The position numbers and the translations under genes were made by a program. Below are positions 15,114 to 32,909 of a DNA stretch of 64,000 bases, piece after piece (within the stretch, counting starts at the first letter, position 1; every line of letters begins with the position of its first letter). A model generated the notes under the pieces. The model was not told where the DNA came from. It did not search any database and was given only the letters and a program-made list of their open reading frames with translations. Source of the DNA: Candidatus Zixiibacteriota bacterium (lineage in GTDB: Bacteria > Zixibacteria > MSB-5A5 > UM-FILTER-46-8); the NCBI GenBank assembly GCA_014730345.1, contig WJIJ01000019.1, positions 10,809 to 74,808 on the forward strand, read 5' to 3'.

Positions 15114-15566
15114 TTTATTATCCTGGAAATTTTTGTATCTCTCGATACATAATGATTCAACCCTGCGTGTAATCAATTGTAAATTATTATAGTACATCCG
15201 CTAACGGCGCAATAACCCTTATCATCTTTAGTTACCCTTTTTACAAAATTAATGGAATTTTGGCTCCGAATCGGCAAATTTAAGATTGACAATTATTATA
15301 AATATATTTAATTTAGTATATTCTCACCGGCGCTTATTAAGGATGATATCGTTGGTTTTGATCTTTTCAACAGGCCAGAACTTGTATTGATTCCGGGTTT
15401 AAAAATGGGGATGTTACCGGTGATGAGTTTACTGGAGTTTTGGTATACTCTAATATAAAGTTGATTTTTTGATTTTAAATCCTATTTGAGGGATTTTCTT
15501 CGACCTTTTTCTGATGTTTGGCAGTTTACTAATTATCGGCACCTTTTCGGAAAGCACGGAGGATTT

Positions 15567-18500
15567 ATGCGTAAGAGCATTCACCGCCTTCTAAAATACA
15601 CTAATTTCCTGATTACAATTATAACAATAGTTGTTGGTGGCTTCAGCGTAGATGTTGCCTCTGGCCGGCTGGCTGAAAACTTCTATTCCGGTGTACCTCT
15701 ACCGGGTGAATGCCTCGTGCAGTTTAGCGGCGATATTAATAAAACCGAGGCTATAAGCGCGTTGAATCGAAATAGTATACGGTTTAGATCCATGATTTTT
15801 GACCGCTACGCCAACCGTGCCCTTGTCAGCTATGATCCTGAAAGCGCTTCCGTGATTGAGGGAATTACTGATGGAAAAGCGAAAATATCCGGAATAAAGT
15901 ATGTTAGTCCAGCTTATGGCGATGAGAAATGCCGTGAATTTCTTATCGATGAGATCGCGGTCGTGTTGGAATCACCCGCGGGCATCGACAGGATTGAAAG
16001 CTGGTGTTCATTGAATGGTTGTTCAGTTATAAGAATTCGCCAGTGGTACGATTACACGGGCGTTTTGATCCGGGTGGATAATTTTTCAGAGGAGCGCTTA
16101 AGCACGGCATGCTCCGAATTAGCAGGTTTTGAAGAAAGTTATCTGGTTCAGCCCAATGTTTTAAAATTCTCCGATCCTGCATCGGTGAACCCTGATGATA
16201 CTTATTTCGATGACCAATGGGCGCTGAAAAATACCGGAATGAACGGATGGCTCGAGGATGCTGATATTGACGCGCCTGAAGGGTGGGAGTTGGCCCGGGG
16301 CAGTTCGGAAATAATTATCGCGGTGCTGGATATGGGAGTTGATGTCGAACACGAGGAATTTATCGATAAGATAGTTGCTCCGTACAACGCGGTTGACGGT
16401 ACGGATGAGCAAACCCCAAATGATTGGGACGCTCACGGCACATGCTGTGCCGGTATTGCCGCGGCCCGGACCGATAACAATAAAGGGATAGCCGGCGTAA
16501 ACTGGAACGCGCAAATTATGCCGATTAAGATCGGCTATACGCCTGAACCCGGGGGGCAGAGGATGGTTACTGATTACTGGGCATCCGATGGAATCCTGAC
16601 CGCCGCACAGAGGGGAGCGGATGTATTGAGTAATAGCTGGTATACAACGCCGTCGGACCTGATCGATCTGGCGTTCTATACAGTTTACCAGACCGGCCGC
16701 GATGGCAGGGGTTGCATTTCGGTTGCCGCCGCGGGGAATTTTAATTCCGATTTAGTCTATCCGGCAAGCTTGCCTGAAACTTTCGCCGTGGGCGCTACCA
16801 GCCCCTGCGATGAACGCAAGAGCCCTACTTCCTGCGATGGTGAAACATGGTGGGGAAGCAATTATGGCCAGGGACTCGACGTTATGGCCCCGGGATGTTA
16901 TATATGGACAACTGACATAACCGGAGGCGGCGGTTCCAATCCGGGAAATCCGGCTTATGGAGATCCGCTGGGGGATTACGTATCACGCTTCAGGGGCACA
17001 TCGTCGGCCACTCCCCAGGTTGCCGGTTTGGCGGCTATTATTTTATCTATCGATCCGGAGATGACCGCTTTTGAAGTACAGCAACTAATAATCGACAATA
17101 CCGATGATCTTGGGCCGCAGGGTTGGGATGAAGAATTTGGGTATGGAAGAATCAATATTTTCAAAACCATTTCAGCAATGGACAGGGTTATACGGGTAGA
17201 TGGAAATATACGCGAGGATCAAGTTTGGAAGCATGGAAATGTATACCTTGTTGAAAATTCTGTAAATATTGAGTCGGATGTTACCATTACTATAGAGGGG
17301 GGAACAGTTGTCAAGTTCAATCCCGAAGAGAGCATGGAGGTTAATGGGATTCTCAGGCTCGAGGGCACAGCCGGATACCCGGTTGTATTTACATCCTATC
17401 GCGACGATGAATATGGGGGGGACACGAATGGCGACGGTCCATCGAACGGGCAGATGTGCGATTGGGGCAAGATAACCATTAATAATCCGGCGAGTGAATT
17501 TCATGATGTAATTATGAGATATGCTGGTCATGACTGGGTTCCACTTCCTTATGACCGTTCACTGGAAACCGTGGCGCTCTATGATGGAATCCAGGATTGT
17601 ACATTTCAATATTGCGGAGGCAACAGCAGGGGAGTAATAGATATAAATGAGAGCGAAGATTTTCAATTTATTATTTCTGATTTGACATTCGAGAATTGTG
17701 ATTATTGGGCGATAAATTATAATGCCAGCCCCACGATTCCGCCCCATTTAGTAAATGTGGATGTTTCGGGGGCGCAGGGGATTTATATGCGCTATGAACA
17801 AAACGGTTCCCCGGTTATAGCCTATTGCGTTGTTTCCGATTTTAATTCTGGCGATGGAATCTATTATTACGGCGGCTACAGCTATGTTTCCCATCCGCAG
17901 ATATTTAACAACCGCGTAGACGGCGGTTCATACTCAACAGGGATTACTGTTTGGTCCGGCGGAGATCAGTCATCCATTAGATTCAATGAGATTATCAATA
18001 ACCAGGATGGGATAAGGCTGGAGAATTATTCGGGAGAAGTATACTCCAACAACATAGAAGGAAATAGCGGTTATGGCCTGATAAATAATTCAGGGATTAT
18101 AACCATAGACGCGGACAGCAACTGGTGGGGCGCGCCCGACGGACCCTCGGGAGGAGGCAGTGGATCGGGGGATGCTATCTCTGGAAATATAGCTTATCAG
18201 CCATACCTTACTGAACCTGCTTCATTTTACGGCCCCCCGGATATTGTCGTCAACCACGACGCTTTCCATGTTGACATGCATCCGGCCGAAATTATCGCTA
18301 AACAGTTCCGGATTACAAATCGCGGGCAAAGTGAACTCGTATACGATGTATACGAAATAGACAGTATTCCTGGTATGAACATGAATGATATCGATATACA
18401 AACTTTAAACAACCCCCTTTCGGATGATTATAAGAGGATTGCCGGTTATATAGTCGACCATGATAACCGTGATGATGTAAGTTGGCTGGAGCCCGTGCCC

Positions 18501-19367
18501 GTCTCCGGAGCGTTGGATACTGGTCAAACAAAGGACATTATGGTGAATTTCTATAGCGGTGAAATGGTTCCTGACAGGTATTCATGCCTGCTTTCTGTTG
18601 TCTCCAATGATCCGGCGAGGCCGGTTTACAATCTCCCCGTATATCTCAATGTGGAACAGCCAGTGGAGTTTTCGGTTATAATGCTCCCGGACGATCCACC
18701 GGCACATGTACCCCACACAGGCGGTGAGTTCGGTTACACGGGCACCTTGAGAAATAATACCGGCCAGTATCAAACCCTTGATTTGTGGTTAACGGTGCAG
18801 ACTCCAGTGGGCGAGGTCCTGGGGCCATTTTATAAAGTTGATAACATACGGATGGCTCCTTATGAAACAATGGTTGCCGCTAATTTATCCAAATATGTGC
18901 CGGGAGATATGATGGCTGGCGACTACATCTTCAGCGCTATCGGCGGTGATTACCCTGACAAAACCGACTCTTGCAGCTTCATCGTTACCAAGGATAATTT
19001 CCGGGGCAATAAAGACGATGGCAATGAGAAAATCTCGTATAGCGGTGAAGCAGTTTTCATTGGCGAGCCGTGGTTTAGAAACAGCGGCGATGAAAACCTG
19101 CCCCTTGTTTTATCACTCGGTAATAATTATCCAAATCCTTTTAACGCGGCCACTTCGATTTCCTACGAACTGCCGTACCCGGCAGATGTCCGCCTTGAGG
19201 TCTATAACCTGATGGGGCAAAGGGTTACGAGGTTGGCTGGCGGTTACCATAAAGCCGGGCGTTATAGTGTTAACTGGGACGCGTCCGATTATTCCAGCGG
19301 GGTCTATTTCTACAGGCTGACCGCGGGCGATGCGACTATAGTTAAGCGGATGACGCTATTGAAGTAA
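15567..19367 (+). CDS. Secreted subtilisin-like serine protease (S8) with I9-like propeptide, parallel beta-helix region and T9SS type-A C-terminal sorting domain
   Basis: The ATG at 15567 gives a signal/anchor peptide MRKSIHRLLKYTNFLITIITIVVGG; the track ORF begins at an upstream TTG at 15486. S8 triad blocks are present (AVLDMGVD, HGTCCAGIAAA, GTSSATPQVAGLAAI). The central region carries repetitive beta-helix-like segments. The C-terminus NYPNPFNAATSISYELP...GVYFYRL...KRMTLLK matches the Por_Secre_tail family. Confidence 0.88.
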   Translation: MRKSIHRLLKYTNFLITIITIVVGGFSVDVASGRLAENFYSGVPLPGECLVQFSGDINKTEAISALNRNSIRFRSMIFDRYANRALVSYDPESASVIEGITDGKAKISGIKYVSPAYGDEKCREFLIDEIAVVLESPAGIDRIESWCSLNGCSVIRIRQWYDYTGVLIRVDNFSEERLSTACSELAGFEESYLVQPNVLKFSDPASVNPDDTYFDDQWALKNTGMNGWLEDADIDAPEGWELARGSSEIIIAVLDMGVDVEHEEFIDKIVAPYNAVDGTDEQTPNDWDAHGTCCAGIAAARTDNNKGIAGVNWNAQIMPIKIGYTPEPGGQRMVTDYWASDGILTAAQRGADVLSNSWYTTPSDLIDLAFYTVYQTGRDGRGCISVAAAGNFNSDLVYPASLPETFAVGATSPCDERKSPTSCDGETWWGSNYGQGLDVMAPGCYIWTTDITGGGGSNPGNPAYGDPLGDYVSRFRGTSSATPQVAGLAAIILSIDPEMTAFEVQQLIIDNTDDLGPQGWDEEFGYGRINIFKTISAMDRVIRVDGNIREDQVWKHGNVYLVENSVNIESDVTITIEGGTVVKFNPEESMEVNGILRLEGTAGYPVVFTSYRDDEYGGDTNGDGPSNGQMCDWGKITINNPASEFHDVIMRYAGHDWVPLPYDRSLETVALYDGIQDCTFQYCGGNSRGVIDINESEDFQFIISDLTFENCDYWAINYNASPTIPPHLVNVDVSGAQGIYMRYEQNGSPVIAYCVVSDFNSGDGIYYYGGYSYVSHPQIFNNRVDGGSYSTGITVWSGGDQSSIRFNEIINNQDGIRLENYSGEVYSNNIEGNSGYGLINNSGIITIDADSNWWGAPDGPSGGGSGSGDAISGNIAYQPYLTEPASFYGPPDIVVNHDAFHVDMHPAEIIAKQFRITNRGQSELVYDVYEIDSIPGMNMNDIDIQTLNNPLSDDYKRIAGYIVDHDNRDDVSWLEPVPVSGALDTGQTKDIMVNFYSGEMVPDRYSCLLSVVSNDPARPVYNLPVYLNVEQPVEFSVIMLPDDPPAHVPHTGGEFGYTGTLRNNTGQYQTLDLWLTVQTPVGEVLGPFYKVDNIRMAPYETMVAANLSKYVPGDMMAGDYIFSAIGGDYPDKTDSCSFIVTKDNFRGNKDDGNEKISYSGEAVFIGEPWFRNSGDENLPLVLSLGNNYPNPFNAATSISYELPYPADVRLEVYNLMGQRVTRLAGGYHKAGRYSVNWDASDYSSGVYFYRLTAGDATIVKRMTLLK

Positions 19368-19772
19368 TCCGAATTCAGAATCCGTTGTTCGGGGATTAAT
19401 GGGGCGAAATATAGTTTCATGTCTACTAAAATTAGGCTTGACATCGAGCATGTAATTTGTAATTTATTTAGATTGTTTTAATGCCGCTGTAGAAAAGGTT
19501 TTGCCGCGATATTCGGATTTCGCCGCAGGGCTTATGCCGTTTAACTGTATATAATATAATCCGCGTTTCGATATCGGAATTTTGATAGTAATTAACAGAT
19601 CCAAACAAAGGGAAAACGGCTGATACGGCGGTTAAGCAGGTGGTGGTTTACCCGATATTAATCTGGCCACTGTTTTCTCTGACGCTTATGGAGAAGCGCA
19701 TACTCAGGGCTGTTGGCAAGGATGAAGAATAAGTAATTGCGCCGAATTAATCTAAGCCCTGCTGATCTAACC

Positions 19773-20861
19773 ATGAAGAATTGGAAACTACTTAAAACCA
19801 TCCCGGTTTTTATACTTGCCTTCTTATCAATACTTGTTTCTATCCAATTCGGGGGTTGCGGCAATCAAAGCATCAGTACTATTAAAAAGTACATAAAACA
19901 GGATAATTTCCAGGGAGCGAAATCTGAGTTAACCGAGCTTCTAAAGCGCGACCCGGTGAATAACGAAGCGCTGTTTCTCATGGGCAAGACCTGCGCCCAA
20001 TTGAAGGAATTCCGGTGTATGAATGAAAATTTCTCGCGGTCGTTGGAAATAGGCGACAGGTTCAGCAGGAAGATAGAGTACATAAAACTGGATAATTGGG
20101 CTTATTATTTTAATATGGCGATGGCATCGTATAGAATTCATGATTATGACAAGGCAATCACATTCGGTGAGTACGCGCTGGCTATAGCCGACACGGCGTA
20201 TGCTCATTTTTATTATCCTGATTTTGAAAATGTTACGCGAATGCAACTGGTTATGGGAGAATCATTCCGGGAGCTGGGGAGAATCGAGGATGCCAACAGG
20301 TATTACCGGTTGTGCCTGGGAAATAATCCGGACCAATTGCTCTGTTTAAACAGGCTGGCGGATTATTATTATTACAAAACGGCTTATGACAGCGCGTTGA
20401 TATTTTACCAGCGCATCGGCAGGATACGTCCTTATGATGAAAACGCTGCGGTACGGGCGGTTAAGTGTGTTGAAAATATTGATGGAGTGGAGGCCGCGAT
20501 CGAGATGGCTAACAGCAAGCTTTCCTCATCATCGAGAAGCGCGATATTAACGCGTTATATAGTTAATCTATACCTCCGGGAAGGAAATTTCAACGGTGCG
20601 GAATTCTGGCTGGAGAATGGTTATGTCGGAGAAAAGGATTATGATTATTACTTCATGCTGGGTCAGTGTAAATACAACCTTATGGATTTTGATAGCGCGA
20701 AGCAGTTGTTTGAAAAAGCTGTGGGTTTATCGCCCACTGGAAAAGAGGCGTGGGAATACCTCCAGATAATCTATGGCAATATTGGAGATATCGAAAAATA
20801 TGAATATGCACGGAGCCGGGTTAATTCTCTTCCGGGAAATGAGGATCAGTTAAAGGACTAA
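19773..20861 (+). CDS. TPR-repeat lipoprotein
   Basis: Start chosen at MKNWKLLKTIPVFILAFLSILVSIQFGGCG (lipobox-like FGGC). Multiple TPR-like helical repeats. Its stop overlaps the start of the next gene (TAATG). Confidence 0.6.
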   Translation: MKNWKLLKTIPVFILAFLSILVSIQFGGCGNQSISTIKKYIKQDNFQGAKSELTELLKRDPVNNEALFLMGKTCAQLKEFRCMNENFSRSLEIGDRFSRKIEYIKLDNWAYYFNMAMASYRIHDYDKAITFGEYALAIADTAYAHFYYPDFENVTRMQLVMGESFRELGRIEDANRYYRLCLGNNPDQLLCLNRLADYYYYKTAYDSALIFYQRIGRIRPYDENAAVRAVKCVENIDGVEAAIEMANSKLSSSSRSAILTRYIVNLYLREGNFNGAEFWLENGYVGEKDYDYYFMLGQCKYNLMDFDSAKQLFEKAVGLSPTGKEAWEYLQIIYGNIGDIEKYEYARSRVNSLPGNEDQLKD

Positions 20862-23800
20862 TGGACTATAACAAACAGACATCCCTTCTATTGAGGGCTT
20901 TGCGGATCCTGGTTTTCTCTATGCTTGTTATACCGCTCTGGGTTAACAACGCCGCGGCGTTGGATATTATCTCGTTTTACCCCGCTAATTTCTCGCTTGG
21001 TTTCGAGGCTACTGATTCCATAAGAGTGGTTTTCGATGCTATTATCGATGACGGGTCAGTTGATAGTACATCATTTTTGGTAAGGGGCAAAACGAGCGGA
21101 GTCTATCGGGGGACATACCGGGTATCGGCGGATACCGCGTGGTTTATTCCCCGCTGGCCATCGACTTTTATCTGGGGCGACATGATAACGGTTACAGTTA
21201 CCGAGGATGTCAGGACACCGATCAATGATTTCCTGGACCGGTCGGTGACATGGCAATTCTGGGTACGTCCTTCCGGCGGCGCAAGGGGCGCTACGGAGAG
21301 GTGGTTTGACCTTAATTCTTTCGACCCGGGCAAACTTATCGAGGTCGTCGATTTAGGTCCGGATGCCGACAGCATTCTTCATCAGCCGGACCTTGTCTCT
21401 ATCGGTCCCAAGCTTGGCGGCGACAGGGTTTCGTACTGGTTGAATGAATTTTCGAGCGACCCTGATATACCTTACCGTAATCCCCGGGCTGGTTTTTTTG
21501 ACCTCGATAACCAGCACAGCACGGATATAGAACCCGGCGATTTCAATAATGACGGCAGGATGGATCTTATTGTGGCCAATGAAGAAAGCGACTATTTCTA
21601 TTTTATTAAAAACACCGGCGGTTCTATCCCTCAGTTCGATTCTGTTTATTATGATATAGGAGGTATCCATTTCAACAGGTTTACCACTCTCGATTATGAC
21701 GGTGACGGATACCTTGATCTCGCGGGGATCAGCCCCGGGCAGAATATACTCGCGGTATTTCACAACGTCCCTTCAGGAAGCGAACGCGATTTCATAGTCG
21801 ACTGGGCTGACTCAACATCTGAATTCTGGCCCAGCGACTTGATCAGCGCTGATTTTAATAATGACCGGTTGATGGATATCGCGGTTTGCGCGAGAAATGA
21901 CGATGGGGAAAGCATTTATATTTACATTAACACCGGAGGTTTGCCGGGGAACCCATTCATTAGCGCCGTAATCCAGACCGGTCCCAATTCCATAACCGGG
22001 GTGGAAGCGGTAAACGCCGATGGCAATCAATCGCCTGACCTGCTTTTGTATTCCAGCCTTACCACTAACTGGCGGGCGGCTGTTATCAATAATCCCATGG
22101 GTCCTTCGACAAGCATAGATACCCTGCAGGGAATAGAACCGGGTATTCATGGTTACCCGGTAGATGCCAAAGCCGCGGATATTGAATTTAGCGGAGGCAT
22201 TAATCTCGAATACGCGGTGATTACCGAACAGAACTATCTTTTTCAGTATATCAGCGGATACGATAATCCCATCATAATAGGACCCGTCGTTGGGATGACC
22301 CTCGAAGAATCACCGCCCAAATTATCCCTCGCCGACCTCGACTACGACGGTGATATAGATATCCTCGTATCCTACGAAAGCGGCAATACAATTGTTGGCT
22401 GGCGCAATCCGGACACCCTCGAGAACCTGGTTGTGGTTCCCGATACAGTGAATTTCGGTATCGTGGAAATAAATACTGTTGATACATTGACCTATTCCAT
22501 AATAAACGCCGGCAATGAGATCGCCACCCTCGATGATATATACGGTGATGATCTTCCATTTAACGTGATTGATTTCCAGGCTGGAGATACGCTGGCACCC
22601 GGCGAGAGCAGTGATATAACGGCGGTATTCCAACCGCCAGCCTACGCTATATTCGAGGATACGGTTGTTCATGTTATAGGTTTAAGGTCTTTATACAGGT
22701 TCGAGGAAAATGTTATTTACTATGGAATTGGCGGCAAAAGGAGTTTTGGCCTTGATTCTGACACCATTGATTTCGGAGTTCAGTGCCGGGATACAGTCTT
22801 CCAGCAATTGCGGATAGAAAACTCATCTCCCGAAAACAATATGGAATTGGTTATCGATTCCTACCGGTGGAACCCGGCCGGTCAAGACCGTTTCCGGGTC
22901 AGGGGCGTGAGCTTGCCGGACACCATCCAGGCCGGGGAAGCTATAACATATTTTGTCGATTTCTTCGCCGACTCGATTTTTGCATCCTATTCGGCGTGGC
23001 TTGTTTTCGAACATAATGCCACCGGGACCGCGGGCATTGATTCGGTGTATATGACCGGCACCGTATTCTGCAATATTCCTCCCGAGGCCGACACGGTGCT
23101 TTTCACGATAAGCGAATGTTCCGATACCGCCTTGTACATTTCTTCTGAAAACTACCGCGATCCGGATAATCTCCCGCAGAACCTGAGTATTATTTCCGTG
23201 GTGGGATATCCATCCTGGGTAAGTTGGGACGGAGACACTACTTTGATTGCCAACCCCGGTCCCGAGGTGCAGGTTGATGAGGATACCGAATACTGGTTTC
23301 CGTACGTTATTACCGATGGGGCGGATACCGCTTCGTCCTGGATTGGTTTAACGCTTCTTGATGTTGAGAACGAACCTCCCGAAGTTGGTCCCCAGCTTTT
23401 CTCGATATTAGGGGATAGTACCCAGAATTTATCGCTGGAGATAAGCGACAACGATGGGGGCTGTTTAGGCTTTCCGGATATTGCTACAACATATACCAAC
23501 AGGTCGCTTCAACTACTTGGTGTGCTCCAAAATTATGATACATTGATTATTGTTCATCCTGATCAGGTACCGGAAGGCGATGTGCTGGTTTGCTCGCTTA
23601 TGGTTTCCGCTTTTGACGGTTTCGATTCATCCTATACAGTAATACCGGTTAATATTCTCCATAATCCTAATATCAAACCCGACCTGCGATTAATTGGACT
23701 GTCAGCGGCATCACAGCGCGTACCGGTGCGGGACTCGGTGGCGCTTACAGTTATTACCGATGTTATCCAAAACAGCTTCCCTGAAGAATATGTGATAGAA

Positions 23801-24283
23801 CTCCGCGACAATGACACCCTGTTCGCAGAGATAAGCATGCCTCCGCTGGGAAAGGACGAAGCTGACACTGTAACGGTTAGGCGATTGATTAGTTCGCTTG
23901 GCAACCATACTATAAACGCGCGGGCGGTTATTCCCCAGGGAGCGGCAGACAGGGATACCACTAACAATGAAAGGTCAATTATCGTGGTGGGAACCGAAGG
24001 GGACGTTATCGTCAAACCAAAGCCGTTTACTCCCAACGGCGATGGTTTTAATGACCGTTTGATTTTTGATTTAACCGCGTTGTACATAGATGAACCGCAG
24101 GTATTGATTTACTCGCTCGCGGGCGTAAAATTGAAGAAACTGGATGATGTATCCGCTGATAAGTTAATCTACTGGGATGGGAAGGATGATTCGGGACTGG
24201 ATCTCCCGCCCGGCGCGTATATGTTTATAGTAACGGACGGTTCTCGCAAACTGCATTCAGGTGTGATTTCCCTTGCAAGATAG
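20861..24283 (+). CDS. Large FG-GAP/VCBS-repeat adhesin-like protein with T9SS type-B (CHU_C, gliding-motility-associated) C-terminal domain
   Basis: 1140 aa. Signal peptide. Repeated FG-GAP-like Ca-binding loops (FNNDGRMDLIVAN, DYDGDGYLDLAG, DLDYDGDIDILVS, DFNNDRLMDIAV). The last about 90 aa contain PKPFTPNGDGFNDRLIF ... GAYMFIV, the hallmark of the type-B T9SS CTD. Confidence 0.72.
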   Translation: MDYNKQTSLLLRALRILVFSMLVIPLWVNNAAALDIISFYPANFSLGFEATDSIRVVFDAIIDDGSVDSTSFLVRGKTSGVYRGTYRVSADTAWFIPRWPSTFIWGDMITVTVTEDVRTPINDFLDRSVTWQFWVRPSGGARGATERWFDLNSFDPGKLIEVVDLGPDADSILHQPDLVSIGPKLGGDRVSYWLNEFSSDPDIPYRNPRAGFFDLDNQHSTDIEPGDFNNDGRMDLIVANEESDYFYFIKNTGGSIPQFDSVYYDIGGIHFNRFTTLDYDGDGYLDLAGISPGQNILAVFHNVPSGSERDFIVDWADSTSEFWPSDLISADFNNDRLMDIAVCARNDDGESIYIYINTGGLPGNPFISAVIQTGPNSITGVEAVNADGNQSPDLLLYSSLTTNWRAAVINNPMGPSTSIDTLQGIEPGIHGYPVDAKAADIEFSGGINLEYAVITEQNYLFQYISGYDNPIIIGPVVGMTLEESPPKLSLADLDYDGDIDILVSYESGNTIVGWRNPDTLENLVVVPDTVNFGIVEINTVDTLTYSIINAGNEIATLDDIYGDDLPFNVIDFQAGDTLAPGESSDITAVFQPPAYAIFEDTVVHVIGLRSLYRFEENVIYYGIGGKRSFGLDSDTIDFGVQCRDTVFQQLRIENSSPENNMELVIDSYRWNPAGQDRFRVRGVSLPDTIQAGEAITYFVDFFADSIFASYSAWLVFEHNATGTAGIDSVYMTGTVFCNIPPEADTVLFTISECSDTALYISSENYRDPDNLPQNLSIISVVGYPSWVSWDGDTTLIANPGPEVQVDEDTEYWFPYVITDGADTASSWIGLTLLDVENEPPEVGPQLFSILGDSTQNLSLEISDNDGGCLGFPDIATTYTNRSLQLLGVLQNYDTLIIVHPDQVPEGDVLVCSLMVSAFDGFDSSYTVIPVNILHNPNIKPDLRLIGLSAASQRVPVRDSVALTVITDVIQNSFPEEYVIELRDNDTLFAEISMPPLGKDEADTVTVRRLISSLGNHTINARAVIPQGAADRDTTNNERSIIVVGTEGDVIVKPKPFTPNGDGFNDRLIFDLTALYIDEPQVLIYSLAGVKLKKLDDVSADKLIYWDGKDDSGLDLPPGAYMFIVTDGSRKLHSGVISLAR

Positions 24284-24291
24284 ACAGGTAA

Positions 24292-26106
24292 ATGGTTTTT
24301 AAGATATTAAAATACGCAATGCTTATCTCTTCGTTCCTGCTGTTATTCACTCCGATCGTATATAGCCAGAATATGTTTGATGACAATCCGGCTGATATCG
24401 ATGGCGCCGTTGCCATCTACTCCAATCCGGCTCTTGGATACTTCGTGGAAAACAGGCTGGTACTGGGTATGGATGCCAGGTATCTGGGTCTTTTGGATAA
24501 CCAGCTTGGTTTAAGAAATCTCTATATTAACTATATCCCTTCATGGAGATTCCGGGGTTTCTCTTTTGGAGCGCAAACATTCAGCGCGGATATTTATAAT
24601 CAAACCACCTTTGGCGTTTCTTATTCCCGTAGTTTGCTGATAAAAAATCTGTCCGTTGGCGCTTCTGTTAACATATTCAACCGGGGTTTCGACAAGGATG
24701 ATTTCGATTTGATAGACAGCAATGACCCGGTTCTTGGTACCAGCCTGTCCAAAACCAATCTTGATATCACCATGGGAATAGCGTTCTTCCCGGTATCCAA
24801 TGTATGCGTTGGTTTTTCTGCTGAGCATATTAATCAACCTAATATAGCAATCGATGGCGACTATTCTCATCCTGCAATGATTTCGCTGGGCGCTAAAGCG
24901 TACTTCGGTAGATTGCATCCGTCTTTGTTTCTATCGAATCTCGAATGGTACGATAATTTAACCCTGTGGGACGCTGTAAAGCGCAACAAGTACCTGCTTA
25001 CATTCGGACTTGACTATGAATTATCAAACAGGTTTATAGTAGGTTCACAAATCAACCGCTCAGGTGCAGGCGTGGGAACAATGTTTAAGATTACTGATCT
25101 ACTCGGCGTGGATTACAGGTATGAATATCCGGTGACCGACATTAATAAATTCGCGTGGGGTTCACACCGGTTGAGCATGGTCTTCGAATTCGATTATGTA
25201 CCCGCTTACCGCCCGTCGGCCGGGATTGTTGAACCACCGGTACCCGTTTATTCTCCGCCCGAAATTGCGGTCAGCAACAGTTCCGACCTGTTTGCATTTT
25301 CGGATGTGGATAGCGTAACTATTCTGGAGCGGGAGATAAACCGCAGGCTCGATAAAGAAATCGACATGAACGAATTCGCGAAACTGAAACCTGCGGAATT
25401 GAACATAACCAGCGGAATCCTCCAGCTCGAAGACAGGTATTTCGCGGCCGATACCGTAGCGGTGAAAGATCCGCTTTCGGAGTTGAAGGGCGCTTATTCA
25501 ACATCTTACCGGGGCGCCTTGAATTCGATCGTTTACGGTATCAAGGAGAAAAGGACCTTGAAAGCCAGTCTTGTAGCGGGGCCCGATAACCTCCAACGGG
25601 CGAATTCCATGTATAACCTGATATCGGGATACGGCCAGCTATTCCCGGAGAACCTTGCAGTCGTAGTGCCGTACTACAGTATAACAGATACGACCGCGGG
25701 GGATATTAATATAATGGCTATGGAACCGGTCGAAAACAGGATTGATATTATTCCCGAGGAGATGAATTTTAAAATCCTGCGGCAGAACCATAGCGGCCAG
25801 GTTTCTGAATGGGCTTTGATGATAAATACTTACGAAGATATTACCGTGAAACTGTGGAATGGAGCCGGGAATCTCCCGGAAGAGATAAAATGGGATTTGC
25901 GTGATGATAGAGGGGAACTGATTAAAGAGGGACAGTATTATTATTATCTTGAATGGCTCGAACCGGACGGGAGTACGCGTCGGTCTTTCAGACAGCAACT
26001 TACAGTCTTGCGTATCCAGAAGAGATTGTTTATAGATGTAACTACGCAACCTTCGTATGACAGATTAAAAGAGGCAGATAAGATAGATTTAATTTTGGGT
26101 CGGTAA
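24292..26106 (+). CDS. PorP/SprF-family T9SS outer-membrane protein homologue with a long C-terminal extension
   Basis: 604 aa. Signal peptide then the IYSNPALGY motif typical of the PorP/SprF N-terminus. Predicted beta-strand-rich first half of about 300 aa. Located 8 nt downstream of a type-B CTD cargo gene, the canonical arrangement. The C-terminal 300 aa have no recognisable family. Confidence 0.5.
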   Translation: MVFKILKYAMLISSFLLLFTPIVYSQNMFDDNPADIDGAVAIYSNPALGYFVENRLVLGMDARYLGLLDNQLGLRNLYINYIPSWRFRGFSFGAQTFSADIYNQTTFGVSYSRSLLIKNLSVGASVNIFNRGFDKDDFDLIDSNDPVLGTSLSKTNLDITMGIAFFPVSNVCVGFSAEHINQPNIAIDGDYSHPAMISLGAKAYFGRLHPSLFLSNLEWYDNLTLWDAVKRNKYLLTFGLDYELSNRFIVGSQINRSGAGVGTMFKITDLLGVDYRYEYPVTDINKFAWGSHRLSMVFEFDYVPAYRPSAGIVEPPVPVYSPPEIAVSNSSDLFAFSDVDSVTILEREINRRLDKEIDMNEFAKLKPAELNITSGILQLEDRYFAADTVAVKDPLSELKGAYSTSYRGALNSIVYGIKEKRTLKASLVAGPDNLQRANSMYNLISGYGQLFPENLAVVVPYYSITDTTAGDINIMAMEPVENRIDIIPEEMNFKILRQNHSGQVSEWALMINTYEDITVKLWNGAGNLPEEIKWDLRDDRGELIKEGQYYYYLEWLEPDGSTRRSFRQQLTVLRIQKRLFIDVTTQPSYDRLKEADKIDLILGR

Positions 26107-26163
26107 CATCGATCCGATAAATAAAATAAGGGAAATACCGGATTACGGATAAGGAGCAGGTGA

Positions 26164-26940
26164 ATGAAAATCGGGATACTAACTATATTGATGACAGCGC
26201 TTTTATTTATGCCATTTTGCGTTTTGTTCGCGCAAACCGGTGATCAGACCGCGGATGAAAGCGCGTCAGCCATTGAGAATACAACTGTGCAGGATACTGT
26301 AGCGCAGGACTACAGCATCGGCGGAATCCTGGCAAGGGCCGGCAAGACAAGATATTTTATTTATGGAGTTCTTGCCCTGGGAGTATTTTTCATAATTTTT
26401 CAGTTTATATTGCTGACCCTCGACAGGAAAAGGTCGGCAGGATTGCGCAAATCGGATCTGGAAAAGATGCCTGTAGAGTCTATACGGAAACGCCTCGAGA
26501 CCGAACCGGATTCATCGGTCAACAGCGCGCTCCTGATGCTTTACCGGGTTTATTCCTCGTCCCGGGATATCAGTGCGTTGAATGAGGAAATAAATTCGTT
26601 TCTCGGGGGCATGAAATCGAGGTTTTCAACATTTACGAATTGGATGAATTTCCTGTCCGATGCCGCTGGAGCTCTGGGTTTATTGGGTACCGTTATTGGT
26701 ATGTTTACCACATTTTTCGGCGCGGATACCGGGTTTGATAACCGCAAAATACTTGACGGTATGGGTATCGCCCTTATCACCACCTTACTCGGCATTATCG
26801 TAAGTTTGATACTAAACCTGCTTACAGTACTGGTAACCAACTACCATAACCGGAATCTCGAATACGTTATGGAAAAATCGGATGAATTCCGCATTATCGC
26901 CGCCCGCAGCCAGAGAAGGGATGAAGCTCCCCGGGCGTAG
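26164..26940 (+). CDS. exbB: MotA/TolQ/ExbB-family proton channel
   Basis: 258 aa. Signal peptide plus three TM helices. Diagnostic LGLLGTVIGMFTTF and GIALITTLLGIIVSLILN motifs. Strong RBS AAGGAG. Confidence 0.8.
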   Translation: MKIGILTILMTALLFMPFCVLFAQTGDQTADESASAIENTTVQDTVAQDYSIGGILARAGKTRYFIYGVLALGVFFIIFQFILLTLDRKRSAGLRKSDLEKMPVESIRKRLETEPDSSVNSALLMLYRVYSSSRDISALNEEINSFLGGMKSRFSTFTNWMNFLSDAAGALGLLGTVIGMFTTFFGADTGFDNRKILDGMGIALITTLLGIIVSLILNLLTVLVTNYHNRNLEYVMEKSDEFRIIAARSQRRDEAPRA

Positions 26941-26958
26941 AATGGAGATTAAAGCAAA

Positions 26959-27339
26959 ATGTTGCTGAGATTGGTAGACATAACCCTTATCCTGCTTTTC
27001 GGATTTATATCCATTAGTTCTATAGAACCACGCACCAATATACGCCTGCCCGAAGCGGAATATGCCGAATTCGACTCCCAAAAACGGAGAGCGGTTGAAA
27101 TTATCGGGATAGATAACCAGGGACGTATCCTTATCAGCGAAGAGAGATACCGGGTGGATAGAGAACTCCTGCTCCCCTACCTTATTCAAAAACGAGAACA
27201 ATTCGATTCGCTGAGAGTAAAAATCAGGGCAGAACGCGACGCGGAGATCATAGATGTCAAAAAGGTCGCATTGCTCTGTGATTCCCTGAGAATACCCAAG
27301 AGCATCGAGGTGCGTATGCCGGAGGGAAGCAGGCGATGA
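26959..27339 (+). CDS. exbD: ExbD/TolR-family protein
   Basis: 126 aa. N-terminal RLVDITLILLFGFI TM typical of ExbD. ATGA overlap with the next gene. Confidence 0.6.
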   Translation: MLLRLVDITLILLFGFISISSIEPRTNIRLPEAEYAEFDSQKRRAVEIIGIDNQGRILISEERYRVDRELLLPYLIQKREQFDSLRVKIRAERDAEIIDVKKVALLCDSLRIPKSIEVRMPEGSRR

Positions 27340-27731
27340 AACGCAAAGGGATAATAATCCGATTAATTGACGTTGTTTTGATAATCCTCCTCGGATTTTT
27401 AGCCATTTCCGATTTCCAGGCTAAAACGCCCATCGACCTTCCCGATTTAACTCCGGATGAGGAGATTGTCAAGGAACCGGAACTCGAGGAAATTCCGATA
27501 GCGGAAGTGGTAATTGACAACGAAAACAAGTTTATTTTTTCCGTCAACCAGGCTGACACAATTATCCTCGACAACAAGGAAGACCTTGAATATACCATAT
27601 ATGATTTTTATTCGCGGGATACATCTATGGTAGTGCTAATCCTGCCCCGGGACAGCTCCGAGGTGCAGGCCACCGTGGATGTAATCGATATATGCGAAAA
27701 ATATGAAATTCCCAGAAATCTGACATTTTAA
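27336..27731 (+). CDS. exbD: ExbD/TolR-family protein (second copy)
   Basis: 131 aa. N-terminal RLIDVVLIILLGFL TM. Directly follows the first ExbD-like gene. Confidence 0.6.
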   Translation: MKRKGIIIRLIDVVLIILLGFLAISDFQAKTPIDLPDLTPDEEIVKEPELEEIPIAEVVIDNENKFIFSVNQADTIILDNKEDLEYTIYDFYSRDTSMVVLILPRDSSEVQATVDVIDICEKYEIPRNLTF

Positions 27732-28673
27732 ATGTACTACGCAAAAAACGAAAATAAGATAAAGCTAATATCGGCGATAATCACGGTGATTATACTGCCG
27801 CTTGTTTACTTCGCCGTAAAAAACCAGACCCCATTCGTGTTTTTACGGCAGATGGCCGAAGAATCCTCCAGGTGGATAACAATTATGAGGCCCGAACCGC
27901 CGCCTGAACCGCCTGATGTGCGCGATGAGCTTTTACGCAGGCTGGAGAGTTTAAAGCAGAGAACCCAGCAAGCGCTCCTTGAGCGAATGGAACGATTGAC
28001 AGAGGAGTTTCAGAAAAATCCGGAACGTATCCAGATTGATAATCGCCCGCAATTCGCACTTCAGCAGGACAGGCTTCGGGACGCAATCGACCGCGTAGGT
28101 TCCGGAAAGCGCGCCAACAGCAAGATACGATCCGGGGGTATAGATTTCACTCCCGGGGGAAATTATAATTTCGGAAACAGCAGTCAGGGCGGCAGTTTTT
28201 CCGGCAAGCGGGAGGGTGTTGCCCGCAAAGATGTCAATGCCGTTACCCCGGGCGATATGAACTGGGCGGAATTCGGTGATGTTAATCTCGACGATGATAT
28301 CTCCAGCGACTATGATAGATTATTGCAGTGGGTTAAAAACCATCCGAAATCTCTTCCAAATGTTTTCATTAACTTGATGGAAGGCGAACGGACTGATCCC
28401 CAGACGATAATTAGGCATAAACACGCCGATATATATCTGTTAATTAATGACCGGGCCAAGCTGGTTAATATCGCTGTTGTAAACAGCGACAGCGTGGCTG
28501 TTATGATCGACCATGGCCTGGCATTGGAAATACGCAAACTTGACCTTGGCGAGGTTTTCCGGAGGAACGAGGACTCGATCATCGGTCTCGATGTCAATCC
28601 CGCTCAAACCCGCAGGAGTTTATACGAGCCGTGGTATACGGCGTTTCGATCATGGTGGGAAGGAATAAGATGA
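27732..28673 (+). CDS. TonB-like protein: N-terminal TM anchor, proline-rich spacer (RPEPPPEPPD), non-canonical C-terminal domain
   Basis: 313 aa. TM at residues about 12-32 and a Pro/Glu-rich segment as in TonB. The C-terminal 120 aa do not resemble the TonB_C fold by eye. Positioned after exbB-exbD-exbD. Confidence 0.45.
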   Translation: MYYAKNENKIKLISAIITVIILPLVYFAVKNQTPFVFLRQMAEESSRWITIMRPEPPPEPPDVRDELLRRLESLKQRTQQALLERMERLTEEFQKNPERIQIDNRPQFALQQDRLRDAIDRVGSGKRANSKIRSGGIDFTPGGNYNFGNSSQGGSFSGKREGVARKDVNAVTPGDMNWAEFGDVNLDDDISSDYDRLLQWVKNHPKSLPNVFINLMEGERTDPQTIIRHKHADIYLLINDRAKLVNIAVVNSDSVAVMIDHGLALEIRKLDLGEVFRRNEDSIIGLDVNPAQTRRSLYEPWYTAFRSWWEGIR

Positions 28674-30256
28674 AAAGGAAGCGTATCGAATTCTATATAT
28701 TGTTGGCAGGTCTAATCATCATGGTTGCCTGTTCAGGGTCTCCAAAAGAGGATACATTAAAACCGGTCGGCGCGCCTGTTACGATTGACACCGTTACTGT
28801 TTATGTCCCGATTCCCCCCGGTATCGATACTACAACAGCGATAGAAGCATACAAACTTGCCGATAAAAGCTTCGTTTCATTAAGCGAGGACTCACTCGCG
28901 GATGCGCTTTATGATGAAGGACATCAGTTGAAAATTGAGGTCGACTCGATCTGGAGCGAATATGAAAAAGCGCTTAACGAGAAAGATTCAGTTGACAATG
29001 ATACAACTGGAATGGGAATGACTATGCGCGCGCTTGAACTTCATGACCAGTATGACAGGTATTATCCCTCGCAAGAAGCATCTCCGGAAGCTATTGCCAA
29101 TATACCAGAGGCCAGATTTCGGCGGCTGGTAACCAATTACGAACGCGCGCGGGATATCATGGAACAGGTTATCCTTATAAATCCATATAATGACCTGTAT
29201 CGAGGATTCCTGGCCACCCTGTATTCCCGGCTTGCCCAGCTCCACCGGTCCCGCGATGACCTTGAAAAATCTATAGAGTTGTATGAAAACCTTATACGTC
29301 TCAACAAGGGATACTTCCGCAACTATTACAACGTTGCCCAGGTTTATGAAGACGCCGGCGATTATCGAAAGGCCTATGAAAACTACAGGAAGGCTGAGGA
29401 GATACTGTTGGAGACCTGGCATTTTGAAACCACGGACACAAACGCGTTCAGGGTCAAGGCATGCCGTCTCGATGATTTTCCGCTTATTGAATATGCCACT
29501 TACATTTTCAGCCAGGCGCTTATGCAGGAGAGAATGTGGCGGGTCGAGAACGCGATTGTCGATTACCGCAGGCTCCGTGAAGTTTCCCGTATGGCCGGTG
29601 ACCGGGAGTATGAACAGTACGCAATAGATGGTATCGCTGAACTTCAATGGGATTACGGCGATATAGCCGCCAGGCAAAAATGGCTCGAATTCTGGGATGT
29701 ACGGCAGAATGATGAAGACCGGGCGGCTTTGCTTTTAAGGGATTTACTGCCGCGTTTGGATGATCCCGATGTTAGAATAATGGCCCAATTCGAGATGGGA
29801 GTTCTTGAATGGACTTCTCTAAACCAGCGTGAGCAGGCTATAACAAGGATAGGGATACTTGTCGATGAGATTGAGCTCGATGAAAATGGCGCTGTTGTCG
29901 ACACGTCATATTACCGGATTATAAACAGCTATGGGTCGATGTGTTTCACCCTCGGAAAGGAATACGAAGATACGGATAAAGTAAAATCTCTCCAATACTA
30001 CCTTGAATCGACAAAATACGAATGGGACCATCGCGGTTCAGGTTTGATTAACTGCATGATTAAACTTCAAAACAGACCGGAGGAAGTTGTTAGACTCGGG
30101 CAGATGGCGGTTGATTATACCGGACAGTTGAACGAGCAGGAATTGAAATTGCTTTTCCAGTTAATGATTGATTCGTACAAAAAAATTGGCGATTTCAGGA
30201 GCGCGCGTATGTATTATTCGAGATGGCGGGACTTGCAAAACATGAGTGGAGGTTAA
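28670..30256 (+). CDS. TPR-repeat lipoprotein
   Basis: Start MKRKRIEFYILLAGLIIMVACSGS (lipobox VAC) overlaps the TonB-like stop (ATGA). Long array of TPR-like helices. Confidence 0.6.
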   Translation: MKRKRIEFYILLAGLIIMVACSGSPKEDTLKPVGAPVTIDTVTVYVPIPPGIDTTTAIEAYKLADKSFVSLSEDSLADALYDEGHQLKIEVDSIWSEYEKALNEKDSVDNDTTGMGMTMRALELHDQYDRYYPSQEASPEAIANIPEARFRRLVTNYERARDIMEQVILINPYNDLYRGFLATLYSRLAQLHRSRDDLEKSIELYENLIRLNKGYFRNYYNVAQVYEDAGDYRKAYENYRKAEEILLETWHFETTDTNAFRVKACRLDDFPLIEYATYIFSQALMQERMWRVENAIVDYRRLREVSRMAGDREYEQYAIDGIAELQWDYGDIAARQKWLEFWDVRQNDEDRAALLLRDLLPRLDDPDVRIMAQFEMGVLEWTSLNQREQAITRIGILVDEIELDENGAVVDTSYYRIINSYGSMCFTLGKEYEDTDKVKSLQYYLESTKYEWDHRGSGLINCMIKLQNRPEEVVRLGQMAVDYTGQLNEQELKLLFQLMIDSYKKIGDFRSARMYYSRWRDLQNMSGG

Positions 30257-30268
30257 AGAGAAGCGCTT

Positions 30269-30994
30269 ATGCCGGGTTATAATAAAGTAATGATTGCCAT
30301 ACTGGGAATAATCATGTTCCCGATGGCTATATTTGCCCAACCGTCGGTTGTTCCCCATAAAGTTGATAAAGCGGTGATAACTGATAAGGTACTTATACGG
30401 GAAATTGCCGCCGAGATGTATATCACCGTTGATATTGAAACCGTGGAGAAGATGGAGATTATTGATATCACCGGGGATGGTTTCGGTAAAAATGATATCG
30501 CTAAAGTTTTTCCTTCAGAGCGATTCTTCCAGCTAAGCGAAATATCCGATGAACTCGAAGAGGAGATGGGCAGTTGGAAAAGGGAGGCCGCCGGTGGTGT
30601 TGTATTTGAGAACCTGCCCGCCGATGAATTCCGTGAGATTTACAACGGGCGGAAACTACCCCAATATCTTTTGCTGGCCAATATCGGCTATGCCCTGGAA
30701 CAGATTTACGGCGACAGTTTGCCCATTGAGCTCTACTACAGCAAGGACACAACAGGAATCATATTCCATTACTGGGGTTACGTGGAAGACTCGCTGGTTT
30801 ATCGTCCCGGGAAAAGGGGAGATGTAGCCAGGACTACGGCTTATGATTTGATGTATGTGTTGAAGAATGATACCACGGTTGTGGTGGATACGACGATGTA
30901 CGATATAATGTTCATTTATAAAACACTGACGGACACGGTCTACCTGCCCGGTCCTGGAAAATTACCACAGGGGAGAGGGCCAATAAATGAATAA
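30269..30994 (+). CDS. Hypothetical secreted protein
   Basis: 241 aa. N-terminal signal peptide. No recognisable domain. Tightly packed in the array and overlaps the next gene by 8 nt. Confidence 0.35.
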   Translation: MPGYNKVMIAILGIIMFPMAIFAQPSVVPHKVDKAVITDKVLIREIAAEMYITVDIETVEKMEIIDITGDGFGKNDIAKVFPSERFFQLSEISDELEEEMGSWKREAAGGVVFENLPADEFREIYNGRKLPQYLLLANIGYALEQIYGDSLPIELYYSKDTTGIIFHYWGYVEDSLVYRPGKRGDVARTTAYDLMYVLKNDTTVVVDTTMYDIMFIYKTLTDTVYLPGPGKLPQGRGPINE

Positions 30995-32033: not shown

Positions 32034-32052
32034 AAAGGGAGTTGAGTGCAGC

Positions 32053-32901
32053 TTGAATAAAATATTCTACGTTATTCTAATCTTAGTGTTAAGCCCTTTA
32101 ACAACTTTTGGACAGCCGCCGGTAATGCCAACCGAAGTTCCAGACGGTATGGTACTCGTGCCCGGGGGACCATTTTACTTCCTTAATACTCCCGACGGAT
32201 ACGGTTTAACGAAATATCCCGGCAATCCGGCGCGTTTGGACAGCTTTTACATAGATATTACCGAGGTGACCAATTCCCAGTATGCTGAATTTTTAAACTC
32301 CGGCAATGAAGAGTTTTACCATGATGATATGAATATCAGCAGGGATTCAATGGGCATTTTCAAATCTGATTTTGGAATGGAAGAGCACCCGGTGGTATCG
32401 GTCAGCTACAATGGAGCGAACGCCTTTGCCCGATGGGCGGGCAAAAGGCTTCCCACCGAGATGGAATGGGAAAAGGCGGCAAGAGGAAGCGCCGGCGGGG
32501 AAGATGAAAACGCTATTGGTTTCGGATATATGTTCCCCTGGGGAAATTCAGAACCGGATTCTTTGATAGCCAATTTTATCAATGGAGCGCCCTACGGATA
32601 CCCGGAGACGACCCCGGTCGGTTACTACGATGGCGAAATACATGATGGTTTTCCAACAGAGGATAATTCCTCTATATATGGCGCTTATGACATGGCCGGC
32701 AATGTATGGGAATGGACCAGCGGAAAACTGATACCATTCGCCGGGGAAACTGTCCCGGACGACGTTATTGAATTGAGGGTAGTACGCGGGGGAAGCTTCA
32801 AGGATGCCGCCATGTCTTTAAGAACCACGACTCGCTCGGGTTACAGTGATTCCACCCACATGCATAATATCGGTTTCCGGTGCGTGAAAGATTTAAGATA
32901 A
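32053..32901 (+). CDS. FGE-sulfatase domain protein (second paralogue; TTG start)
   Basis: 282 aa. Signal peptide. Complete domain: MVLVPGGPF, EVTNSQYAEF, HPVVSVSYNGANAFARWAGKRLPTEMEWEKAARG, FPWGN, GNVWEWTSG, VVRGGSF...RTTTRSGY...NIGFRCV. Confidence 0.85.
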   Translation: MNKIFYVILILVLSPLTTFGQPPVMPTEVPDGMVLVPGGPFYFLNTPDGYGLTKYPGNPARLDSFYIDITEVTNSQYAEFLNSGNEEFYHDDMNISRDSMGIFKSDFGMEEHPVVSVSYNGANAFARWAGKRLPTEMEWEKAARGSAGGEDENAIGFGYMFPWGNSEPDSLIANFINGAPYGYPETTPVGYYDGEIHDGFPTEDNSSIYGAYDMAGNVWEWTSGKLIPFAGETVPDDVIELRVVRGGSFKDAAMSLRTTTRSGYSDSTHMHNIGFRCVKDLR

Positions 32902-32909
32902 TCCTGCTT

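Follow-up and report, generated by a model that had tools for sequence, protein, structure and literature searches.

A PorP/SprF-type barrel with a conserved C-terminal extension, encoded between a type-B adhesin gene and ExbB/ExbD-type genes in a Zixibacteria contig

We examined a window of 64,000 nucleotides from a Candidatus Zixiibacteriota bacterium (assembly GCA_014730345.1, contig WJIJ01000019.1, positions 10,809 to 74,808 of the forward strand; positions below are counted from the first letter of the window), in which the gene of a large adhesin-like protein is directly followed by the gene of a 604-aa protein that we call the long PorP. According to sequence searches and modelling, the N-terminal half of the long PorP is a predicted PorP/SprF-type barrel which would serve as a type IX secretion system (T9SS) carrier for the type-B sorting domain of the adhesin, and its C-terminal half, as far as sequence comparison tells, is a real, selected and conserved module. 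Downstream comes a set of ExbB/ExbD-type genes which keeps its place next to the long PorP in several phyla. The carrier role is much more secure than the coupling of the carrier to this putative motor: for the combined statement, namely a T9SS type-B carrier whose periplasmic tail is docked to a co-encoded motor apparatus, the chances look evenly balanced to us.

The adhesin and its long partner

An earlier note on this DNA, made from its letters alone, had proposed that a type-B adhesin-like cargo is paired here with a PorP/SprF-like partner of about twice the usual size, starting 8 nt downstream. Both open reading frames (ORFs) are found where it had placed them (20861-24283, 1140 aa, and 24292-26106, 604 aa, both on the + strand), and the 8-nt gap between the stop codon of the cargo and the start of the long PorP can be read directly at the junction (...gca aga TAG acaggtaa ATG...). 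Set against a PorP/SprF model length of 273-292 positions, 604 aa is indeed about double. The two proteins divide as follows:

20861-24283, + strand: cargo, an adhesin-like protein of 1140 aa rich in FG-GAP, Big_5 and immunoglobulin-like (Ig) domains, with a signal peptide (Pfam)
24017-24283, + strand: type-B (CHU_C / TIGR04131-like) sorting domain of the cargo, residues 1053-1140 (model matches, conservation)
24292-24366, + strand: signal peptide of the long PorP, residues 1-25, sequence MVFKILKYAMLISSFLLLFTPIVYS, followed by QN, the mature N-terminus being Gln26
24367-25191, + strand: predicted PorP/SprF-type 14-strand beta-barrel, residues ~26-300 (PF11751, AlphaFold2 (AF2) model)
25192-25281, + strand: Pro-rich linker modelled with low confidence (predicted local distance difference test, pLDDT, ~50), residues ~301-330, sequence PSAGIVEPPVPVYSPPEIAV
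25282-25701, + strand: domain X, a predicted beta-hairpin and alpha/beta unit, residues ~331-470 (AF2)
25729-26040, + strand: predicted Ig-like beta-sandwich of the FlgD_ig / T9SS C-terminal domain (CTD) superfamily, residues ~480-583
26041-26106, + strand: conserved C-terminal tail (helix and strand, ...DKIDLILGR) and stop codon (alignment, AF2)

The cargo has the make-up that had been read from its letters, that of an FG-GAP adhesin with DxDxDG loops: it scores 58.8 bits with Pfam FG-GAP_3, 40.3 with FG-GAP and 29.5 with Big_5, it contains an Ig-like domain too, and three D-x-[DN]-x-[DN]-G loops lie at residues 227, 278 and 492. At its end, CHU_C matches residues 1054-1136 with 26.5 bits when the full protein is searched and with 30.5 bits when the last 140 residues are searched alone (cut-off 27). 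All seven orthologous cargo tails match both CHU_C and TIGR04131, the type-A model being weaker and matching four of the seven. The best-conserved part of the cargo is formed by its last 130-160 residues, sorting domain included (33-40% identity by BLASTP), and the sorting domain reads PFTPNGDGFND...WDG.D..G...PG.Y.Y...LAR. This tail match, together with the PF11751 match of the partner given below, supports the proposed pairing of a T9SS type-B cargo with a PorP/SprF protein.

Four other proteins of the window carry type-A T9SS sorting domains (Por_Secre_tail; 15486-19367, 43403-45727, 45900-48884 and 60993-63260), which means that a T9SS is evidently in use. Two of them are large S8 subtilases, one is an InhA-like/MAM/NIDO protein and one has Sortilin/BNR repeats; T9SS cargo is dense for a window of 64 kb. 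We must also note that CHU_C and TIGR04131 score strongly on the internal FlgD_ig repeats of large OmpA-terminated proteins (P0004, P0012, P0025). Hence, a CHU_C match alone is no proof of a T9SS signal: such a call also needs the extreme C-terminal position and a PorP-like neighbour. This cross-matching is a problem for annotation.

The N-terminal half of the long PorP scores 61.6 bits with PF11751 PorP_SprF (cut-off 22.3), over residues 99-298 only, and the other long-PorP members tested reach ~34 bits with the Pfam model. In the full-length AF2 model, built on the 26-member family alignment (all our AF2 models were built on shallow alignments, of 26-36 sequences), 14 strands are predicted between residues 55 and 299, with pLDDT mostly 85-95. 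Compared with the PDB, this barrel is matched best by chain F of a substrate-bound T9SS complex (8gl6) and next by FadL, TodX and TbuX. In the family alignment the N45-P46 pair (NPA motif) is invariant and Q26, the first residue past the predicted cleavage site, nearly so; an N-terminal pyroglutamate habit is reported for the secreted and outer-membrane proteins of Bacteroidota, and the Gln-first pattern fits it. The sole cysteine of the 604-aa protein, C172, lies within the barrel.

The earlier note had named two outcomes that would speak against it: an N-terminal half with no PorP/SprF score, and a second half that is a separate gene fused by a frameshift. The PF11751 score, well over its cut-off, runs counter to the first. 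A word-indexed homologue search, made with the protein or with the 26-member family alignment, returned the same three proteins only (one 94% identical, one of 604 aa from Zixibacteria at 48% identity, and one in which PorP, Ig and caspase parts are fused), and a scan of the genome collection with family alignment A1 gave no matches. When residues 308-604 were searched exhaustively with HMMER, 439 relatives came up, which fall into two classes. In the first, proteins of ~580-626 aa and fragments are matched over the whole extension (residues ~310-600, 22-33% identity); all whole-length matches among the best 150 of the 439 are of this kind, the N-terminal halves of the members tested score with PorP_SprF, and the source names are candidate division KSB1, Calditrichota, Balneolales and Zixibacteria. 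In the second, proteins of 1000-4000 aa share only a segment like residues ~487-587, which they repeat 5-15 times; the repeats are matched by Pfam FlgD_ig and by CHU_C alike, and in many of them the last domain is an OmpA domain. The extension is aligned end to end in independent assemblies from four sources (NCBI, JGI, ENA and Logan) at 22-94% identity, the orthologues having it at full length with 22-48% identity, and this conservation excludes a frameshift fusion. The unusual length is the only point in favour of an artefact, that is, of two genes fused by frameshift or misassembly in the assembly or annotation; the same architecture, at 593-626 aa, in independent assemblies refutes it, and we give it hardly any credence.

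A side observation touches this family: in an 840-aa protein (P0003, L002:356-2878), encoded outside an ExbBD cassette, a PorP_SprF barrel is joined to Ig-like domains and a C-terminal caspase (Peptidase_C14). PorP-family barrels apparently carry varied C-terminal periplasmic modules.

The earlier note had found no obvious family for the extension. This stands for the library hidden Markov models: residues 308-604 match no Pfam family (the best is TssR_M, E = 0.06) and no PDB sequence. It does not stand for the last ~100 residues, which resemble the Ig domains of the FlgD_ig and T9SS-CTD type, nor entirely for the middle part, which is weakly OmpA-like. Modelled alone, the extension adopts a confident predicted fold (pLDDT 86.7, predicted template modelling score 0.75). 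Both fold searches made with it were dominated by the Ig domain, and the closest solved folds of this sandwich are T9SS CTDs (PorU, PorZ, mirolase CTD, PPAD) and FlgD. HHalign links the Ig module to the cargo CTD family at 95.4%, over the central 47 columns only; judged by these profiles, the Ig domain of the extension is homologous to the cargo's own sorting domain. The tail that follows has the family consensus D-x-x-x-L-I-L and is modelled as a helix (589-594) and a strand (597-601) with pLDDT 80-88.

The alpha/beta unit is harder to place. Its elements in the AF2 model are strands 332-337, 341-353 and 385-389, helix 404-419, strand 424-428, helix 431-445 and strand 455-461. The units of 24 members match no Pfam family and give only scattered single weak matches; TssR_M was rejected as an identity, having appeared in one member only (E = 0.016-0.06), PF00691 (OmpA) matches none of the 24 members at E <= 10, and the profile of the unit has no significant relative among PDB sequences. 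When the unit is aligned by HHalign to OmpA-like domains, the score is 23.8 (P = 5.5e-4, probability 30%), while 100 column-shuffled templates give 9.0 +/- 1.6 with a maximum of 14.2 and unrelated control profiles give 8-11; the signal is ~9 standard deviations over the shuffle null. The register of the alignment runs helix, strand, the GHTD...N..LS loop (deleted in our unit), R/K-A helix, strand; of the peptidoglycan-binding motif only the R/K-A helix is kept. With reserve, we read the unit as a probable degenerate OmpA-like fold without the peptidoglycan-binding loop.

In general, outer-membrane barrels with an even number of strands have their C-terminus in the periplasm. As the modelled barrel has an even strand count, the extension should be periplasmic; of the two locations offered by the earlier note, periplasm or surface, the 14-strand model favours the first and makes the second unlikely. 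No cysteine is present in residues 300-604, and a Cys-X-Cys of the SprF type was not found in the extension.

The gene cluster and its conservation

The two genes belong to a co-directional cluster of 12 genes (19737-34841), tightly packed or overlapping, and this cluster, larger than the 5.2-kb interval singled out by the earlier note, is the relevant unit. Its other members are:

19737-20861, + strand: upstream tetratricopeptide repeat (TPR) lipoprotein, 374-aa ORF, lipobox ...FGGC (TPR Pfam matches)
26164-26940, + strand: ExbB/TolQ/MotA-family proton-channel protein, 258 aa (PF01618, 49.8 bits)
26959-27339, + strand: ExbD/TolR-family protein 1 (ExbD1), 126 aa, with transmembrane (TM) Asp (PF02472, 35.6 bits)
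27336-27731, + strand: ExbD/TolR-family protein 2 (ExbD2), 131 aa, with TM Asp (PF02472, 42.6 bits)
27732-28673, + strand: protein X, 313 aa, with N-terminal TM anchor, low-complexity linker and conserved ~120-aa C-domain (alignment)
28670-30256, + strand: protein Y, TPR lipoprotein (TPR matches; the ORF starts at GTG 28631, ATG 28670 being the likelier start)
30269-30994, + strand: protein Z, 241 aa, secreted, of no known family
30987-34841, + strand: three proteins of the formylglycine-generating enzyme (FGE)-sulfatase fold, 348, 282 and 653 aa (PF03781, 105, 164.6 and 88.7 bits)

We compared ten further loci for nine family members, a small sample in which all loci are orthologous. Genes for ExbB, ExbD and ExbD, in this order, lie directly 3' of the long PorP in eight of nine loci; wherever the flank is long enough, the locus has proteins X, Y and Z; in 9 of the 10 loci the gene directly upstream of that of the long PorP is a cargo orthologue; the upstream TPR orthologue is directly 5' of the cargo or of the long PorP in all loci with upstream flank. 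Every gene of the cassette, including X, Y and Z, is orthologous across loci by BLASTP, and the taxa concerned (Zixibacteria, KSB1, Calditrichota, Balneolales) show an identity of only 22-48%. The earlier note had supposed that the extension couples the cargo to the downstream Exb-type motor. What is borne out is the gene order, conserved in the said eight of nine loci and in several phyla; a physical coupling is what this order suggests.

The common arrangement has two exceptions. In a KSB1 locus (L090:8823-11803, GCA_016927835.1) the long PorP comes directly after the TPR gene, with a 128-nt gap and no adjacent adhesin gene; the run ExbB-ExbD-ExbD-X-Y-Z is complete, with a Toluene_X gene, of the FadL family, downstream. 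The gene of the cargo may lie at another place, or the carrier may serve a purpose which does not depend on cargo. In the P0040 lineage (L006:10001-18283, L007) the long PorP is directly followed by X-Y-Z and then by two FGE-fold genes. Upstream in this lineage are two TonB_C proteins and a sigma factor of the extracytoplasmic function type.

The PF01618 and PF02472 scores of ExbB, ExbD1 and ExbD2 are all over the cut-offs of these models. With the NCBIfam equivalogs (ExbB, TolR, ExbD) the cassette proteins stay far under the cut-offs, TolR being the best NCBIfam match of ExbD1. The two ExbD genes, which overlap by ATGA, encode distinct paralogues, each orthologous across loci; the RLVDI motif of ExbD1 is kept in all orthologues, the RLIDV of ExbD2 is conserved, and both retain the TM Asp in all loci. 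An unusual observation concerns ExbB itself: in four lineages (L004:9103-10689, L090:11823-13394, L091:11804-13321, L009:3683-4963) the cassette ExbB has 426-528 aa instead of ~250, with an extra ~250 residues after the MotA_ExbB region that give faint or weak Ig-like matches (Big_1, MG4, Invasin_D3).

Protein X begins 0 nt after ExbD2. W200, F305, W308 and W309 are invariant in its alignment, and no Pfam or NCBIfam family and, by profile search, no PDB sequence relative was found for it. The likely ATG of protein Y overlaps the stop codon of X (ATGA); Y has orthologues in all loci and its lipobox is kept in eight of eight, that of the upstream TPR lipoprotein in seven of eight sequences (lipobox Cys). 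Protein Z matches nothing in Pfam or NCBIfam and, by profile search, nothing in the PDB, and its orthologues are 26-56% identical with 24 invariant positions. Z also shares the Gln-after-cleavage pattern of the long PorPs (IFA before the site, QP after it). FGE-fold genes follow protein Z in five of eight loci, and this recurrence suggests that their products may be structural (PorK/GldJ-like) rather than enzymatic. In the window, the third of them (653 aa) has fn3 and Ig-like domains and the only clear lipobox of the three. Their best NCBIfam match is PorK/GldK TIGR03525 with 86, 101 and 51 bits (cut-off 350), and with GldJ they reach at most 43 bits (cut-off 458); an identity as PorK/GldK/GldJ equivalogs was rejected, the scores being far under the cut-offs.

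A separate gene like porE is lacking from the cassette. Promoter and terminator scans gave nothing better than shuffled sequences. By the housekeeping protein AceE the window belongs to the FCB group, with no representative genome close to it; the values, 73% to an 'Ignavibacteria' MAG and 70% to several Zixibacteria, do not decide a finer placement. The cluster is flanked on one side by a PAS histidine kinase (10491-12824) and a GGDEF + EAL response regulator (13353-15113), and on the other by a PAS-domain response regulator (37627-38616, - strand); these signalling genes could point to a control of surface behaviour by cyclic di-GMP.

A proposed mechanism and its competitors

We propose that the barrel half would be a T9SS carrier dedicated to the FG-GAP adhesin, whose type-B sorting domain it would anchor at the surface. 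The periplasmic module, hung on the Pro-rich linker and made of the degenerate OmpA-like unit, the Ig domain and the conserved terminal strand, would be a docking handle which joins the carrier-adhesin complex to an envelope-spanning apparatus encoded downstream. In this apparatus ExbB and the two ExbDs would form a proton-driven stator, and the TM-anchored protein X, which has a TonB/TolA-like topology, could span the periplasm; the two TPR lipoproteins, protein Z and, in many lineages, the PorK/GldK-fold proteins would also take part. The motor would pull, move or gate the adhesin carrier, as TonB does with TonB-dependent transporters (TBDTs), TolA with Pal, and GldLM, through GldK, with SprF. 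In short, the long PorP looks like a carrier with an internalised and degenerate PorE-like pair of Ig and OmpA-like domains, served by a Ton/Tol-type motor.

Several points weigh against this mechanism. The long PorP scores 65.7 bits with TIGR03519, below the cut-off of 90.55, and the cargo 27.4-30.1 bits with TIGR04131, below 35. The periplasmic place of the extension, which is probable, comes from the strand count of a model based on a 26-sequence alignment. Since the extension has no Cys, the only coupling chemistry demonstrated by experiment, the disulfide that ties a carrier to GldK, cannot apply. TonB and TolA use a TM His to bind their motor. In protein X no TonB_C or TolA match and no conserved TM His (SHLS motif) was found; we rejected X as a bona fide TonB, only the topology being TonB/TolA-like. 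The P0040 lineage has no ExbB/ExbD at this place. Finally, as the loci are all orthologous, their synteny partly reflects shared descent and is not fully independent evidence; it is synteny and topology that suggest the motor coupling.

Instead of a handle for a motor, the extension could be a built-in PorE-like static tether to peptidoglycan or to a periplasmic scaffold, with the ExbBD genes serving another purpose. Non-mobile type-B cargos have been proposed to be anchored via PorP-PorE complexes, and porE-like genes lie beside porP-like genes in Flavobacterium johnsoniae (PMC9143113, PMC12618676); in PorE an OmpA-like domain is paired with a CP domain of Ig-like type (PMC12204202). The lack of a separate porE-like gene in the cassette, the alignment of the alpha/beta unit to OmpA-like domains well over the null and the common joining of FlgD_ig repeats to OmpA domains all agree with a tether. 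However, the GHTD...N..LS loop with which such a tether would bind peptidoglycan is deleted in the alignment, the 24 members give no OmpA Pfam match, with an HHalign probability of just 30%, and a static tether leaves unexplained why ExbB-ExbD-ExbD-X-Y-Z persist across phyla, even without a cargo gene. We regard it as rather unlikely. The persistence of the motor genes in the KSB1 locus, where no cargo gene is adjacent, we counted toward a coupling within the cassette.

The same KSB1 locus, with its Toluene_X gene nearby, can be turned toward a further explanation, in which the barrel is a FadL/PorV-like channel opened or driven by ExbBD-X for uptake or envelope maintenance and the adhesin is merely a neighbour. 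In structure the barrel comes close to FadL, TodX and TbuX, and the parts recall Tol-Pal: a TolQ-like and TolR-like proteins, TPR lipoproteins, a putative OmpA-like remnant and a spanning protein with a TM anchor. Yet the barrel scores with PorP_SprF and not with Toluene_X, its best PDB match is a chain of the T9SS complex, and the protein directly upstream in nine of ten loci is one with a type-B CTD, this CTD being its most conserved part; a channel seems improbable to us. No better placed is the idea of a signal mimic. As the Ig domain and the cargo's sorting domain are homologous by profile, the former could work as a CTD-like element inside the carrier, one which docks the empty carrier to the T9SS translocon or its energy chain from the periplasmic side, or which competes with the CTD of the cargo. 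The HHalign link and the PorU, PorZ, mirolase and PPAD folds speak for this; but the link covers only those 47 central columns, the type-B PNGDG.ND motif is absent from the extension, the Ig domain is not terminal (a conserved tail of ~20 residues comes after it), and FlgD_ig-type domains are widespread as periplasmic or surface modules with no role in secretion. Here too the chance appears slight.

Coming back to the carrier docked to a motor, one may go further and suppose that the cassette is a self-contained and undescribed machine of FCB phyla outside Bacteroidia, in which a Ton/Tol-type proton motor, and not GldLM, acts via the folded tail of the carrier to move, tension or switch the adhesin. 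We hold this broader claim as tentative and doubtful. If it were true, adhesin propulsion or energised adhesion would have been solved independently here, and the cassette would form a bridge in evolution between Tol/Ton systems and gliding of the T9SS-linked kind. If the coupling itself is real, energised outer-membrane carriers reach beyond Bacteroidia into Zixibacteria, KSB1, Calditrichota and Balneolales, the outer-membrane clients of a Ton/Tol-type motor come to include a new kind, and about nine proteins make up a tractable set for the transfer of force from the inner membrane to an adhesin. Three unannotated families, protein X, protein Z and the alpha/beta unit, also receive provisional roles.

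Comparison with known systems

The components are of known kinds: a T9SS carrier, a type-B cargo and ExbBD. In the literature we found no description of long PorPs or of an ExbB/ExbD/ExbD-X-Y-Z cassette; the part not found described is the fusion of such a periplasmic module to the carrier, and the fixed way in which it is associated with ExbB/ExbD/ExbD-X-Y-Z in FCB phyla other than Bacteroidia.

Close in gene order is SprB/SprF of F. johnsoniae, in which a type-B adhesin gene also stands immediately before that of a PorP/SprF-family barrel. SprF's C-tail in the periplasm is bonded to GldK via a Cys-X-Cys disulfide and in this way connects SprB with the GldK track driven by the motor (PMC12635249); which carrier a type-B cargo has determines if it is mobile or PorE-anchored (PMC9143113, PMC12618676). 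In both systems the carrier has a periplasmic C-terminal element, and FGE-fold genes, like that of the FGE-sulfatase-fold lipoprotein which builds the motor-driven structure joined to SprF, are found in the cassette too. Unlike the short tail of SprF with its Cys-X-Cys, the tail of the long PorP is a predicted folded module of 300 residues with no Cys; the motor genes are of the ExbB/ExbD type and not GldL/GldM, the FGE-fold proteins are far under the GldK/GldJ cut-offs, and the host is not one of the Bacteroidia.

With PorP-PorE of Porphyromonas gingivalis and the porP/porE-like operons of F. johnsoniae, the cassette shares a PorP-like carrier, putatively periplasmic modules of Ig-like and, less surely, OmpA-like kind and TPR elements; according to a proposal, that combination holds type-B cargo at its site (PMC9143113, PMC12618676, PMC12204202). 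It differs in that the Ig and OmpA-like parts are fused to the long PorP, in the opposite order and without a peptidoglycan-binding loop; moreover the long PorP has no beta-propeller, the TPR parts are separate lipoproteins and a motor set is co-encoded.

Clusters of a TPR protein, a tolQ-like gene, two tolR-like genes and a TM-tethered transducer have been described (PMC12204202). Our cassette resembles these and Ton/Tol-Pal in its ExbB/TolQ-family channel, its ExbD/TolR-family proteins with a TM Asp, its TM-anchored protein in which a long linker leads to a globular domain at the C-terminus, its TPR lipoproteins, and its outer-membrane partner, which has an Ig-like domain, probably periplasmic, and a putative OmpA-like remnant. 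In contrast to Ton/Tol-Pal, it has no TonB_C or TolA C-domain, no SHLS motif or His in X and no TolB, it has two distinct ExbD paralogues, and its outer-membrane partner is a predicted T9SS-type carrier with an adhesin cargo.

The Agl-Glt gliding apparatus of Myxococcus is described as having one TolQ/ExbB-like protein and two that are TolR/ExbD-like, spanning proteins of a TonB-like kind, several proteins with TPRs, barrels in the outer membrane and an integrin-like adhesin at the surface. The apparent likeness is one of parts list: the adhesin of the cassette is an FG-GAP propeller with a T9SS signal and not a VWA lipoprotein, and the barrel is of the PorP/SprF type.

Recent work has the fate of a cargo set by the periplasmic tail of its PorP/SprF carrier. 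Placed among these systems, the long PorP would be a natural third design beside the Cys tail of SprF, which leads to the GldK track, and PorE, which fixes other carriers to the wall: in this design the tail is a folded two-domain module, and the gene of the carrier is locked to ExbB/ExbD/ExbD and not to GldLM.

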